Of a stretch of DNA of 64,000 nt, positions 17,932 through 24,731 are shown piece after piece; positions within the stretch are counted from its first letter, which is position 1; every line of letters starts with the position of its first letter. Source of the DNA: Heptranchias perlo (Eukaryota); the NCBI RefSeq assembly GCF_035084215.1, contig NW_027139442.1, positions 1,054,001 to 1,118,000 on the forward strand, written 5' to 3'. Both the position numbers and the translations under genes were made by a program. A model generated the notes under the pieces. The model was not told the DNA's origin and made no database searches. It saw only the letters and a program-made list of their open reading frames with translations.

Positions 17932-18313
17932 GGTGTGCGGATATTACACAGTGTGCTGAGAGTTCGGAACGTGTGGGAGTTGAAGGGTTAATCTCTTTAA
18001 ATCTAGTGCATATTGCTTCAACTGTTTAAAGTCAATTTAAAAGTTTAAATTTCTAAGTTTCTGTCAGGCTTCAGCAGAGAGCTGCTGTAGCAAGTTAATT
18101 GGTTAGCTAGATTCAATTGGTCCCTGAAGGTGGGGCAGGACTGACTCATCTGAGTCTCAACTGCAGAAATACAGGGGCCTGTCAGTGCGGACTGCACGGT
18201 GTGCGGATATTACACAGTGTGCTGAGAGTTCGGTACGTGTGGGAGTTAGGTGAAGTGGGGGAAGGAGGTGCTGCTTTGCCTTGCTTTTCCTGCAGAGCGG
18301 TAGTGGACCTGAG

Positions 18314-18560
18314 AGCGGTGAGCGGCGGGAGAGAGCGAGACCAGAGCGGGGATAAAAACAGCGCGGAGAGAGCGAGACCAGAGCGGAGATATAAACAGCG
18401 CGGAGAGAGCGAGAGTCCAGTCGGTGAGCGGCGGGAGAGAGCGAGACCAGAGCGGAGATATAAACAGCGCGGAGAGAGCGAGAGTCCAGTCGGTGAGCGG
18501 CGGGAGAGAGCGAGACCAGAGCGGAGATATAAACAGTGTGGAGAGAGCGAGACCAGAGCT
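18314..18560 (+). repeat. 69-bp tandem repeat in the CR1 5' UTR (about 3.5 copies)
   Basis: tcggtgagcggcgggagagagcgagaccagagcggagatataaacagcg recurs at 18421 and 18490. Confidence 0.9.
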
Positions 18561-18828
18561 CACTCTGAGAGCGAGACTCGGAGACCAGCGGCAGTTCGGG
18601 GTGACGTCACCAGTCAGAAAGTGACGCGGCACAGGGGAGGCAGCTGATTGGTGAGTAGGTTCAGGTGAGTATTTCTACCATTTTACTGTAAGTAAAGTAA
18701 TAAGAAAGGGAAGATCTGCAGGTTTTATAGCAGATAGTGTTTTTTTTTAGTGAACCTAGGTCCCTAGTATAGTTAACATTTTCTAATTTCAACGTAATTT
18801 AAAAGGGGTAACTCAGCTAAGGCAAGTC

Positions 18829-19779
18829 ATGGCAGCAGACCTCGCACCCGTGATATGCTCCTCCTGCAAGATGTGGGAAGTCATGGACACTACCAGTGTC
18901 CCTGCCGACCATGTGTGCGGGAAGTGTGTCCACCTGCAGCTACTGACCGATCGTATCTCGGAGCTGGAGCTGCGGGTGGACTCACTGTGGAGCATCCGCG
19001 ATGCAGAGAAACTCGTGGATAGCACGTTTAGCGAGTTGGTCACACCGCAGGTAAAGGGTATACAGGCAGGAAGTGAATGGGTGACCACCAGGAAGAGTAA
19101 GAGATGCAGGCAGGTAGTGCAGGGGTCCCCTGTGTCCATCCCCCTCTCAAACAGATATGCCACTTTGGATGCTGTTGGGGGGGATGACTTATCAGGGGAA
19201 GGCAGCAGCAGCCAACTTCCTGGCACCACGGGTAGCTCTGCTGCACAGGCTGGGAGGAAAAAGAGTGGCAGAGCTATAGTGATAGGGGACTCAATTGTAA
19301 GGGGAATAGACAGGCGTTTCTGCGGCAGCAACCGAGACTCCAGGATGGTGTGTTGCCTCCCTGGTGCAAGGATCAAGGATGTCTCGGAGCGGCTACAGAA
19401 CATTTTGGAGGGGGAGGGCGAACAGCCAGCTGTCGTGGTGCACATAGGCACCAACGATATAAGTAAAAAAGGGGATGAGGTCCTAAAAGCAGAATATAGG
19501 GAGTTAGGAGGTAAATTAAAAAATAGGACCTCAAAGGTAGTAATCTCAGGATTGCTGCCAGTGCCACGTGCTAGTCAGAGTAGAAATAGGAGGATATTTC
19601 AAATGAATACGTGGCTAGAGGAATGGTGCAAGGGGGAGGGATTCAAATTCCTGGGACACTGGAAACGGTTCTGGGGGAGGTGGGACCAGTACAAACCGGA
19701 TGGTCTGCACCTGGGCAGGGCCGGGACCGCTGTCCTAGGAGGAGTGTTTGCTAGTGCTGTTGGGGAGGGTTTAAACTAA
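18829..19779 (+). CDS. CR1 ORF1: Cys-rich zinc finger, coiled coil and SGNH/GDSL esterase domain (316 aa)
   Basis: CSSC...CGKC, heptad repeats, and esterase blocks VIGDS, PGA, HIGTND, DGLHL. Confidence 0.93.
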   Translation: MAADLAPVICSSCKMWEVMDTTSVPADHVCGKCVHLQLLTDRISELELRVDSLWSIRDAEKLVDSTFSELVTPQVKGIQAGSEWVTTRKSKRCRQVVQGSPVSIPLSNRYATLDAVGGDDLSGEGSSSQLPGTTGSSAAQAGRKKSGRAIVIGDSIVRGIDRRFCGSNRDSRMVCCLPGARIKDVSERLQNILEGEGEQPAVVVHIGTNDISKKGDEVLKAEYRELGGKLKNRTSKVVISGLLPVPRASQSRNRRIFQMNTWLEEWCKGEGFKFLGHWKRFWGRWDQYKPDGLHLGRAGTAVLGGVFASAVGEGLN

Positions 19780-22718
19780 AGTGGCAGGGGGTTGGGAACC
19801 TGAGCAGGGAGAGAGAGGAAAGCGTAACAGGAAGTGACAGAAGGTATGGAGTAATAGGTAAAGTGTTAAAAAAGGAAAAAGCAGGAACTAAGCGTCACAA
19901 AACAGATTTGAAAGTTCTTTATCTGAATGCACGTAGCATTCGTAATAAAATGGACGAGTTAACGGCACAAATAACTACGTATGGGTATGATCTTGTGGCC
20001 ATTACAGAAACATGGCTGCAGGGTGACAACGACTGGGAATTAAATATGCCAGGGTATTTAACAATCAGGAAGGACAGGCAGGAAGGAAGGGGAGGTGGGG
20101 TGGCTATGTTAATAAAGGAAGGAATCACTGTAATACAGAGAAATGATATTGGGACAAAGCATCAAGATAATGAAACAGTTTGGGTGGAGATAAGGAATAA
20201 TAAGGGAAAAAAAACATTAGTGGGCGTAATAAATAGGCCTCCTAATAGTTGCAACTCTGCTGGAAGAAGTATTAATCAGGAGATAGTCGGGGCATGTAAT
20301 AAGGGAACAGCCATAATTATGGGGGATTTTAATTATCATATTAACTGGACAAATCAAATTGGGCAGAGCAGCCTTGAGGACGAGTTCATTGAGTGCATCA
20401 GGGATGGATTTCTTGAGCAGTATGTAACTGATCCTACAAGGGGGCAGGCAACCTTGGACCTGGTCCTGTGTAATGAGTCAGGATTAATTAATAATGTCCT
20501 AGTTAAGGATCCCCTTGGAACGAGCGACCACAACATGGTTGAATTCCATATCCAATTAGAGGGTGAGAAGGTTGATTCTCAAACAAGCGTACTGAGCTTG
20601 AATAAAGGAGACTATGATGGTATGAGAGCGGAATTGATTAAAGTGGACTGGGAAAATAGATTAAAGGGTAAGACGGTACATGAGAAGTGGTGTTCATTTA
20701 GGGAGTTATTTTACAACTTTCAAAATAAATATATTCCACTGAGGAAAAAAGGGTGTAAAAGAAATGACAGCCACCCGTGGCTAAGTAAAGAAATCAAGGA
20801 TAGTATCCGACTAAAAACAAGGACATATAAGGTAGCCAAACTTAGTGGGAGGATAGAAGATTGGGAATTCTTCAAAAGACAGCAAAAAGTAACTAAAGGA
20901 TTGATTAAGAAAGGGAAGTTAGATTATGAAAAGAAATTAGCAAAAAATATAAAAACAGATAGCAAGAGTTTCTATAGTTATATAAAAAGAAAAAGGGTGG
21001 CTAAGGCAAACATAGGTCCCTTAGAGGATGAGACCGGGAAATTAATGGTGGGAAACATGGAGATGGCAAAAATGCTGAACAAATATTTTGTTTCAGTCTT
21101 TACAGTAGAGGACACTAAGAATATCCCAACACTGGACAAACAGGGGACTCTCGGGGGGGAGGAGCTAAATACGATTAAAATCACTCAAGAGATGGTACTC
21201 AGTAAAATAATGGGACTCAAGGCGGATAAATCCCCTGGACCTGATGGCTTCCATCCTAGGGTCTTGAGGGAAGTGGCAGTAGGGATTGTGGATGCTTTGG
21301 TGATAGTTTTCCAAAATTCCCTGGACTCAGGAGAGGTCCCGGCAGATTGGAAAACTGCTAATGTAACACCGTTATTTAAAAAGGGTAGTAGGCAGAAGGC
21401 TGGAAATTATAGGCCAGTTAGCTTAACATCTGTGGTGGGTAAAATTTTGGAGTCTATTATTAAGGAGACAGTAACGGAACATTTAGATAAGCATAATTTA
21501 ATAGGACAAAGTCAGCATGGCTTTATGAAGGGGAAGTCATGTCTGACAAATTTGCTTGAGTTCTTCGAGGATATAACGTATAGGGTGGATAAAGGGGAAC
21601 CAGTGGACATAGTGTATTTAGACTTCCAGAAGGCATTCGACAAGGTGCCACATAAAAGATTATTACTTAAGATAAAAAAATCACGGGATTGGGGGGAATA
21701 TTCTGGCATGGGTGGAGGATTGGTTATCAAACAGGAAGCAGAGAGTTGGGATAAATGGTTCATTTTCGGACTGGCAACCAGTAACCAGTGGTGTTCCACA
21801 GGGGTCGGTGCTGGGTCCCCAACTCTTTACAATCTATATTAACGATTTGGAGGAGGGGACCGAGTGCAACATATCAAAATTTGCAGATGATACAAAGATG
21901 GGAGGGAAAGTAGAGAGTGAGGAGGACATAAAAAACCTGCAAGGGGATATAGACAGGCTGGGTGAGTGGGCGGAGATTTGGCAGATGCAATATAATATTG
22001 GAAAATGTGAGGTTATGCACTTTGGCAGGAAAAATCAGAGAGCAAGTTATTTTCTTAATGGCGAGAGACTGGAAAGTACTGCAGTACAAAGGGATCTGGG
22101 GGTCCTAGTGCAAGAAAATAAAAAAGTTGGTATGCAGGTGCAGCAGGTGATCAAGAAAGCCAACGGAATGTTGGCTTTTATTGCTAGGGGGATAGAATAT
22201 AAAAACAAGGAGGTATTGCTGCAGTTATATAAGGTATTGGTGAGACCGCACCTGGAATACTGCATACAGTTTTGGTCTCCATACTTAAGAAAAGACATAC
22301 TTGCTCTCGAGGCAGTACAAAGAAGGTTCACTCGGTTAATCCCGGGGATGAGGGGGCGGACATATGAGGAGAGGTTGAGTAGATTGGGACTCTACTCATT
22401 GGAGTTCAGAAGAATGAGAGGCGATCTTATTGAAACATATAAGATTGTGAAGGGTCTTGATCGGGTGGATGCAGTAAGGATGTTCCCAAAGATGGGTGAA
22501 ACTAGAACTAGGGGGCATAATCTTAGAATAAGGGGCTGCTCTTTCAAAACTGAGATGAGGAGAAACTTCTTCACTCAGAGGGTGGTAGGTCTGTGGAATT
22601 TGCTGCCCCAGGAAGCTGTGGAAGCTACATCATTAGATAAATTTAAAACAGAAATAGACAGTTTCCTAGAAGTAAAGGGAATTAGGGTTATGGGGAGCGG
22701 GCAGGAAATTGGACATGA
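19770..22718 (+). CDS. CR1 ORF2: APE endonuclease and reverse transcriptase, with two 1-nt homopolymer frameshifts
   Basis: LNARS, ITETW, GDFN, SDH (APE); YLDFQKAFD, QGSVLGP, FADD (RT). Extra A in 21674-21680 and missing G in 22685-22687; the corrected end is KGIRGYGERAGNWT* at 22718. Confidence 0.9.
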
Positions 22719-22849
22719 AGCTGAGTTCGGATCGGTCAATGCCCTGTGGGTGGCGGAGAGGGCCGAGGGGCTATGTGGCCGGGTCCTGCTCCGACTTCTT
22801 GTGTTCTTTAGATTTGTGGTTGGGATCAGATCAGCCATGATCTTATTGA

Positions 22850-23489
<640 letters not shown>

Positions 23490-23521
23490 AGCGACCAAGA
23501 CTTAATCTGATAACCCAAAGG

Positions 23522-24731
23522 ATAGGACCAACCTTATTGAAATCTTTGAAGAAGGCACAGAAAGTGAATACAAGTTTAATGCAGTAGATGCGATATATTT
23601 GGATATTATGAAAACCTTCGATAAGATACCGCATTGCAGACTCATGGCTAATTTCAGAGCATGTGGAGTCAGCGGACATGTGCCAGAATGGATATCAAGC
23701 TGGCTACAAAACATAAAACTGAGAATCGAGGTTAAGGGTCGCTACTCAGACTGGCAAAAGGTGGGAAGTGATGTTGCATTTGCTGGGACCACGGTTCTTC
23801 ACAATTTACATTAACGATGTGGAATTGGGAATCGGAAGTACGATTCAAAATTTGTGGACGATACCAAACTGGAGGATGTAGTTAATACAAAGGAAGAATG
23901 CATCAAAATGCAAGAGGACATTAATAAACTTGCAGACTGAAGAATAAGGAGATCACACACTGCTTGGATAATAAGAGTCTAAACGGGATAGAGGAGCAAA
24001 GGGATCTGGTTGGTACAGATATAAAAATTACAAGAAGTAGCGACGCAGGTCAAGAAGGTCATAAAAAGGAAACTCAAACACTATGATTCAATTCTTGAGA
24101 GCTTGAATTGAAAATCAAAGAAGTTATCGTAAACTTGTCTGGAAACTTGTTTAGACCAAACTTGGAGTATTGTGCACAATTCTGGTCTCCATATTATAGA
24201 AAGGACGGAGAGGGATTGGAGAAGGTGCAAAAACGATTCTCAAGATACGAAAAATGAGAGAATAATCTTCTTATGAATATAAGAATATTCTTATGAGGAA
24301 ATGCTGAAGAGACTGGGGGTGTTTTCTCTGGAAAAGAGAAGGCTGAGGGGTGACGTGATTGAGGTCTGACGATGGGGTTTCATAGGGTCGACATAGAGAA
24401 AATGTTTCCACTTGTGGGGAGTCCAAAAGTAGAGGTAATAAATATAAAATGGTTGCTAATAAATCCAATAGGGAATTCAGGAGAAACTGATTTACCTAAA
24501 GAGTGGTTTGAATGTGGAAAACGCTACCACAAGCAGTAGTTGAGACAAATAGCACAGATCCATTCAAGGGGAAGCTGGATTAACACACGAGGAAGAAAAG
24601 AATCGAAGGATATTCTGATAGGGTTCGATGAATTAAGGAGGGAGGAGGCTCGTGTGGAGCATAAACGCCGGAACAGACCAGTTGGGCCGAATGGCCTGTT
24701 TCGGTGCCTTCGTTTCGATGTAACTCGATGT
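23522..24731 (+). mobile_element. 5'-truncated decayed CR1 inserted in the H2A 3' UTR, with 5-bp TSD AAAGG
   Basis: RT-like remnants (DAIYLD...FDKIPH, FVDDTK) and tail gggccgaatggcc...(tcgatgtaac)n. AAAGG at 23517-23521 and 24732-24736. Confidence 0.85.

Follow-up and report, generated by a model that had tools for sequence, protein, structure and literature searches.

The 64,000-nucleotide stretch of the Heptranchias perlo genome analysed here (contig NW_027139442.1, positions 1,054,001 to 1,118,000; referred to as the window) contains a full-length long interspersed nuclear element (LINE) of the CR1 type at 18195-22924 on the forward strand. Its two open reading frames (ORFs) meet at a U_UUA_AAC heptamer, at which a fusion of the ORF1 and ORF2 products is probably made by -1 programmed ribosomal frameshifting. 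The junction combines a distinct anatomy with conservation at the nucleotide level, an open -1 frame and the absence of a conserved AUG. Judging from the comparison of related elements, it is a real and deeply conserved feature, and it would work like a gag-pol -1 site.

Anatomy of the ORF1-ORF2 junction

A preliminary description of the window had placed U-UUA-AAC at 19770-19776, in phase just before the ORF1 stop, and had assigned ORF2 to the -1 frame, opening at 19755 and reaching its first AUG at 19950, past the first endonuclease motif. Both statements hold: the TAA at 19777-19779 adjoins the heptamer, the -1 frame that opens at 19755 has no stop before the endonuclease domain, and the ATG at 19950 lies ten codons past the YLNARS motif at 19920. 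A profile search of PDB aligned the YLNARS strand with the L1 endonuclease (E 3e-6); a PDB search with the single sequence gave no match. Initiation at 19950 would lose this strand, which corresponds to L1 endonuclease residues 11-16 and thereby to Asn14, which we take to be a residue of the active site. Since TTTAAAC and X_XXY_YYZ heptamers of any kind are infrequent in the window (2.2e-4 and 3.5e-3 per base, respectively), one that stands in phase at just this position is not likely to be a product of chance. Nor is the layout of the junction a defect of this particular copy, because TTTAAAC-TAA followed by an open -1 linker was found in all 30 loci of the same family.

Conservation of the heptamer as nucleotides

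The comparison covered three families of the same genome, namely family A, to which the window element belongs, family B (its ORF1 74% identical to that of the window) and family C (50-53% identity over the C-terminal part of ORF1), together with a metagenome set of 43 loci of mostly 26-50% identity. Of the latter, 17 could be tested, and in the other 26 either the end of ORF1 was unmatched or the contig ended. TTTAAAC lies within 40 nucleotides of the ORF1 end in nearly all of them (A 30/30, B 18/20, C 18/20, metagenome 15/17). As for the endonuclease, its frame is -1 in 30/30 loci of family A, 16/19 of family B, 11/15 metagenome loci and 7/20 of family C, and the -1 linker is open from the heptamer in 30/30, 15/19, 10/15 and, in the decayed family C, 5/20. 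Copies of family B have a mean identity of 99.2%, and three of the four long rows of this family read 975 codons open from the heptamer. Searches of the same genome with P0108 and P0005 returned family B again, and a search with 66 nucleotides of DNA gave no match; no relatives were found with query A1 among viral contigs or with P0098 and A3 among genome contigs.

The use of codons was followed in 19 of 87 usable loci that we selected ourselves (one from family A, one from B, three from C and 14 from metagenomes). L077, which has no heptamer, L098, in which it is out of frame, and L101, where AAG comes after it, were dropped because the stop found in them was not the terminal one. Across these 19 junctions, whose pairwise amino-acid identity ranges from 12 to 90%, the terminal Leu is always TTA and the Asn always AAC (19/19 each), while TTA makes up 14.7% of the Leu codons in these ORF1 ends. 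The codon preceding Leu-Asn ends in T in 18/19 junctions, a result reached by way of GGT, GCT, TAT, TGT, CAT, TCT and TTT. The one exception, L072, reads G_UUA_AAC, and G_UU(A) is listed as a variant of the XXX triplet for equine arteritis virus (PMC5009743). In a control of 18 other conserved ORF1 columns the top codon holds a share of 0.31-0.83, and these mixed codons indicate that synonymous sites have turned over. The codon comparison confirms conservation of the heptamer as nucleotides, beyond what a protein ending in Leu-Asn would need. Conservation in related CR1 families, which the preliminary description had proposed to look for, thus extends at the codon level to identities as low as 12-30%, and because of it we regard the observation itself as settled.

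Two further comparisons point in the same direction. Contigs from three sequencing runs of other organisms (9,162, 11,940 and 9,550 contigs aligned to the window) peak in depth at 19768-19779 and collapse past about 19816; among the variants listed for the three runs, none of at least 8% falls at 19770-19780, and 19769 and 19781 vary. As alignment favours similar sequence, this supports rather than proves the conservation. The motif followed by TAA or TAG also occurs at 17 places resembling the end of ORF1 in published CR1-group consensus sequences, whose name codes presumably stand for sharks, rays, chimaera, coelacanth, frog, crocodilians and ray-finned fish. These are 17 of 20 matches, judged by eye, in the supplement of PMC13343379, the other three lying elsewhere; the scan took in the first 400 characters of each cell and speaks to presence only.

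ORF1 protein ends in relatives

At the protein level, 85 of 120 ORF1 homologs end in LN. With a search of representatives included, 197 of 252 proteins reach the C-terminus of the profile (the remaining 55 were dropped), among which 133 end in LN, 11 in GN and three in KN, compared with a background of 4.9% for slip-compatible dipeptides; clustering at 60% leaves 20, 7 and 1, respectively, of 61 clusters. The residue before LN permits a T-ending codon in 131 of the 133 proteins and the next two positions do so in 80 and 79; positions -6 and -7 also permit one in 123 and 127 of 133, which makes this a moderate control. Gln precedes the GN end in 9/11 cases and none of the 133 LN ends. Gln codons can end in G but not in T, and a Gln at this place is what X_XXA_AAC predicts if the heptamer had been swapped to G_GGA_AAC. 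To judge from the protein, GN and KN ends would fit G_GGA_AAC and A_AAA_AAC, which are named together with U_UUA_AAC among the most shifty heptamers (PMC5009743). A scan of viral contigs with P0107 for the DNA of GN-ending elements found none. The LN end is not tied to one structural position, since its spacing from the DGxHL motif varies from 22 to 39 residues.

In eleven other ORF1 proteins (P0186, P0188, P0202, P0206, P0246, P0249, P0250, P0151, P0181, P0205 and P0223) Lys-Asn, Phe-Phe or Gly-Phe stands a few residues before the stop, and such internal dipeptides of distant ORF1s could mark slippery sites that do not abut the stop codon.

Start codons of ORF2

The start of ORF2 was surveyed in 44 rows of family B, two of them repeats of the same loci, one unparsed and six with the endonuclease out of frame. 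No Met precedes the endonuclease in 34 of the 37 in-frame rows, and the first Met stands at codon 146 in 27 of them. The ATG at 19950 of the window is ATA in 84%, 78% and 54% of the contig depth in the three runs from other organisms. Fifteen diverse junctions whose -1 linker is open and whose endonuclease motif was called correctly have linkers of 37-69 codons that differ in sequence, and the other two frames of these linkers nearly always carry stops. An AUG overlapping or adjoining the ORF1 stop, as in SART1, is absent in families A and B and occurs in only four metagenome elements. A consensus AUG upstream of the endonuclease domain, which the preliminary description had named as a finding that would speak against frameshifting, does not exist in these alignments; some distant families carry an AUG there, at varying positions.

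The downstream G run

Downstream of the heptamer the preliminary description had noted a G-rich tract with a small hairpin. The tract is a conserved G run, whereas the hairpin (GGTT-ggg-AACC, 19790-19800) does not appear in the predicted fold (z -0.38 to -0.47) and was rejected, as family B has GGAT-GGG-ATAC and cannot form the stem. In the 19 junctions, which were chosen for carrying the heptamer, G occupies positions +11 to +15 in 19, 18, 18, 18 and 18 cases, and positions +4 to +10 are variable (top base 0.37-0.74). An alignment of 14 rows over up to 520 ORF2 codons contains only two degenerate residues that are fixed as codons, CTA (14/14) and the GGG of this run (12/14).

No stem-loop or pseudoknot of the classical stimulating kind was found 5-9 nucleotides downstream of the CR1 heptamer by folding that leaves pseudoknots aside (z near zero in the window and in 36 of 37 folds of relatives) or by Rfam. 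A long-range duplex between the G run and the 3' untranslated region (UTR) scores near the top in the window and in some copies of family C; it is absent in family B, which has a different 3' end, G-rich seeds pair with many sites, and it is not supported. A G-quadruplex was set aside, many relatives having only one or two G runs. In family C (L051-L070) the G run after the stop varies in length, up to about 20 Gs in L070, and is a hotspot of indels.

Given frameshifting, we tentatively suggest that the stimulator is the linear GGGGG 10 nucleotides downstream, which would act by way of a protein that binds it or of a long-range partner, and not a local stem-loop or pseudoknot, with slow termination at the stop perhaps helping. 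A wider proposal seems more doubtful to us, namely that the whole CR1 lineage with an esterase ORF1, together with more distant relatives, produces reverse transcriptase exclusively in the form of a Gag-Pol-like fusion, that the -1 shift is driven by a stimulator of an undescribed kind, an unstructured GGGGG kept 10 nucleotides beyond the heptamer and read by a protein (possibly ORF1p, as a feedback control), and that the heptamer has been swapped for G_GGA_AAC, A_AAA_AAC or G_UUA_AAC in distant branches.

Frameshifting and alternative routes to ORF2p

The preliminary description had read the junction as the site of an ORF1/ORF2 fusion by -1 frameshifting, and the codon-level conservation of the heptamer and the lack of a conserved AUG argue for this reading. 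A minority of ribosomes would slip back one base on the heptamer and go on to make an ORF1-linker-endonuclease-reverse transcriptase fusion, predicted at about 1,296 amino acids in family A (316 from ORF1 and 980 from the -1 frame). The slip would involve tRNA-Leu (UUA to UUU) and tRNA-Asn (AAC to AAA) in tandem, and most ribosomes would terminate at UAA and release free ORF1p, in a ratio resembling that of Gag to Gag-Pol.

Several observations weigh against this interpretation. Classical -1 frameshift sites have a downstream structure, and none is conserved here: z falls below -2 in only 1 of 37 folds of relatives (by a method that leaves pseudoknots aside), an Rfam search gave no match, and a conserved pairing partner of the G run was found neither in ORF2 nor in the 3' UTR. 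In the old family C (mean identity 90%) the endonuclease frame is split 7/7/6 over -1, 0 and +1; the decay of this family, with its many G-run indels, makes it uninformative on the frame, and its modal linker length of 204 nucleotides (5/18 copies) corresponds to the -1 frame. The 19 junctions of the codon test share descent and were picked by hand from the 87 usable loci. The ORF1 search profile itself contained the LN columns and so favoured LN ends, the heptamers of GN and KN elements are predicted here from protein and not read in DNA, and 41 of 102 more distant ORF1 representatives lack a slip-compatible dipeptide at the end, so that not all esterase ORF1s share this arrangement. Finally, an AUG precedes the endonuclease in 8 of the 15 diverse junctions (it is absent in 7), at codons 5, 5, 5, 23, 29, 43, 55 and 59, and the AUG at codon 5 of L080, L081 and L088, two nucleotides past the stop, would suit reinitiation and is the strongest point in its favour.

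Termination followed by reinitiation is the alternative that retains most weight, and even so we regard it as unlikely. Ribosomes would resume translation at an AUG or near-cognate codon close by, the block of heptamer, stop and G5 would serve as a signal for reinitiation or pausing, and ORF2p would be made as a protein of its own. Like CR1, SART1 and L1 have bicistronic LINE RNAs, and for both it is reported that ORF2 expression depends on ORF1 translation and proceeds by reinitiation (PMC2881922, PMC3708506). TAG-NN-ATG in the ORF2 frame in L080, L081 and L088 and the overlap of TAA with ATG in L097 are in keeping with this mechanism, as are the in-frame CTG, GTG, TTG and ATA codons of the window linker and the failure of folding to reveal a frameshift stimulator. 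However, the codon that is ATG in L080, L081 and L088 is TGG, TCG, GTG or GCA in other elements (in close relatives one of the first three), and families A and B have no AUG ahead of the endonuclease. SART1 has an overlapping UAAUG, whereas in families A and B there is no AUG near the stop and the ORFs overlap with the heptamer. Reinitiation requires neither an in-phase X_XXY_YYZ nor a fixed third base 5' of the Leu codon nor a frame that is open back to the heptamer, and after a long ORF1 it was judged improbable in a review (PMC3894237).

It is very unlikely, in our estimate, that both mechanisms are in use across the group, with frameshifting ancestral and lineages that have an AUG just past the stop making part or all of their ORF2p by reinitiation, so that the fusion would not be the chief ORF2 product in all of them. 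An AUG does stand at codon 4-5 past the heptamer in four metagenome elements, yet these retain the heptamer in full together with the TAR stop and G run, and the AUG is not fixed in the close relatives L084, L089 and L078. In the four elements concerned (L080, L081, L088 and L097) the AUG lies two nucleotides after the ORF1 stop or overlaps it, in the ORF2 frame and beside a full heptamer, and they may make use of both frameshifting and reinitiation.

A correction at the level of the RNA, either by slippage of the polymerase on TTTAAA or on the adjoining G runs or by splicing into an acceptor near the G run, would also give an in-frame message; we consider it highly improbable. G-run length does vary among genomic copies, in many families an AG stands before the G run (A at +10 in 13/19), and in the family B copies L126, L127 and L129 one or four extra Gs unite ORF1 and ORF2 in a single frame of 1266-1290 amino acids. 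These fused copies, however, were selected for long frames, and a G run upstream of the heptamer is missing in most families. Cis preference is established for L1 and is assumed here for CR1; RNA that makes ORF2p would then be expected to be copied back, and yet 30/30 family A loci keep the unshifted junction. Splicing is further opposed by the absence of a pyrimidine tract and by the lack of the AG in L097 and in the published crocodilian consensus sequences. Among 14 joints listed for contigs of four presumed RNA runs none has GT..AG ends that link ORF1 to ORF2, a result that we do not use as evidence because contigs cannot exclude splicing.

The extra-G copies of family B lie at C4:58529000-58533800 (L126), C4:58702300-58707100 (L127) and C12:13523000-13527800 (L129), with L048 and L128 as further cases, and their extra Gs sit in a G8 run upstream of the heptamer. 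They may be homopolymer mutations or assembly errors, and L126 and L127, which are 173 kb apart, may represent one duplication.

Hardly credible, finally, is a mere protein need for C-terminal Leu-Asn combined with shared descent and an unrelated route to ORF2 such as internal initiation: the protein alignment does show Asn316 as invariant and Leu315 as almost so, and all elements have a common ancestor, but other Leu, Asn and Gly columns of ORF1 that are just as well conserved are encoded by mixed codons, the variable codon before Leu-Asn is likewise fixed in its third base, and the LN end floats relative to DGxHL.

The element and its genomic setting

The coordinates of the CR1 element and of its junction are given in Table 1.

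Table 1. Features of the CR1 element in the window.
Feature	Position	Strand	Remarks
5' UTR	18195..18828	+	sister copies align from about 18195-18212; 5' limit approximate
Tandem repeat in the 5' UTR, 69-nucleotide unit	18365-18552	+	Tandem Repeats Finder
ORF1, 316 amino acids, SGNH/GDSL esterase domain, C-terminus Gly-Leu-Asn-stop	18829..19779	+	Lipase_GDSL_2, E 1.4e-12
ORF2, APE endonuclease and reverse transcriptase	19755..22718	+	
Slippery heptamer U_UUA_AAC, X_XXY_YYZ phase (T-TTA-AAC)	19770..19776	+	
Linker, purine-rich, 48 codons open in the -1 frame	19776..19919	+	other two frames: 6 and 4 stops
ORF1 stop TAA, abutting the heptamer	19777..19779	+	TAA or TAG in relatives; -1 frame reads CTA (Leu)
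GGGGG, unstructured, candidate 3' stimulator	19787..19791	+	+11 to +15 after the heptamer; each position G in 18-19 of 19 junctions
First endonuclease motif, YLNARS	19920..19937	+	aligned to L1 endonuclease residues 11-16 (LTLNIN)
First in-frame ORF2 AUG	19950..19952	+	3' of the first endonuclease motif; not conserved
3' UTR and (TTCTTATG)3.5 tail	22719..22924	+	

The window element has the features of the CR1 group, that is an esterase ORF1, an ORF2 with APE endonuclease and reverse transcriptase, and a short tandem 3' tail, which are also those of vertebrate CR1 LINEs (PMC13343379). Its assignment to CR1 rests on this architecture and on published consensus sequences of shark CR1 whose junctions are nearly identical. 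The closest named relatives of its ORF1 are from sharks and rays, among them a Pristiophorus protein of 76% identity. Family A has 842 candidates in the 3.25-Gb genome and is young, the 30 loci that were fetched being 98.5-100% identical to the window. The ORF2 of the window copy is interrupted by two 1-nucleotide indels, near 21674 and 22685, both of which are private to it (6/6 sister copies checked lack them), and 982 codons are open from the heptamer in five of six family A sisters.

The repeat of the 5' UTR is a compound one of 37+32 nucleotides (69 in total) that spans 18328-18559 of the window in 2.7 copies of 98% identity. Just 3' of the CR1 element lies a histone H2A-like gene (23105-23490, forward strand), which is frameshifted near its C-terminus and is probably a pseudogene, followed by a decayed reverse transcriptase fragment at 23506-23811. 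Among the ORF1 relatives P0006, P0024, P0084, P0085 and P0117 is a CR1 ORF1 sequence under a Pseudomonas aeruginosa label, probably a contamination, and in the same set CR1 ORF1 also forms part of isoforms annotated in rays for RPS24, TMEM204 and ABHD14A-like genes, which reflects either exonisation or annotation error.

Relation to known systems and implications

The likeness of the CR1 junction to retroviral and long terminal repeat (LTR) element gag-pol junctions lies in a heptamer that ends the structural ORF, an enzyme ORF in the -1 frame and a predicted fusion. Coronavirus infectious bronchitis virus (IBV) uses U_UUA_AAC, and pol is in the -1 frame in 28/51 animal LTR elements (PMC5009743). 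Unlike these elements, CR1 has neither LTRs nor a protease, and a conserved linear G run was detected in place of a downstream pseudoknot or stem-loop. In this respect the junction is reminiscent of the arterivirus PRRSV, where the motif CCCANCUCC, located 11 nucleotides past the shift site, is bound by nsp1beta and a poly(C)-binding protein (PMC5009743). Both have a short linear 3' motif at a fixed distance, which in CR1 follows a 10-nucleotide spacer; the likeness is one of geometry only, the CR1 motif being G-rich and not C-rich and having no known binding protein.

Among non-LTR elements, ORF2 translation of TRE5-A and TRE3-A of Dictyostelium is stated to require a -1 frameshift (PMC5911963). 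These are also two-ORF elements of the APE type, in contrast to CR1 they belong to another clade and have another type of ORF1, and they are likened here by their description and not by their junction. For LINEs of Paramecium +1 frameshifting or reinitiation has been suggested (PMC5405496), and HeT-A is the only non-LTR case cited in the parts of a 2016 review of frameshifting that we refer to (PMC5009743). The CR1 literature covered by our search describes two separate proteins, and its retrieved passages make no mention of a frameshift at the junction. The search returned no report of frameshifting there and did not extend to the CR1 papers of 1997-2003 (Haas, Kajikawa, Kapitonov and Jurka); an earlier proposal may be contained in Haas 1997/2001, Kajikawa 1997 or Kapitonov and Jurka 2003.

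Reviews treat the way in which LINE ORF2 is translated as an open question (PMC3894237, PMC3708506). The cases put to the test, L1 and SART1, point to reinitiation. Elements of the CR1 group dominate most vertebrate genomes (PMC13343379). For this group a conserved -1 site would be a short answer to that question. The unstructured G run may be a frameshift stimulator of a new kind. If frameshifting does take place at the heptamer, the N-terminus of CR1 ORF2p is mis-annotated, and constructs of CR1 ORF2 that begin at the first AUG would miss part of the endonuclease. ORF1p of ZfL2-1 is a self-associating, membrane-binding esterase (PMC3905857), and the CR1 ORF2p would be tethered to an esterase with such properties, in parallel to Gag-Pol.

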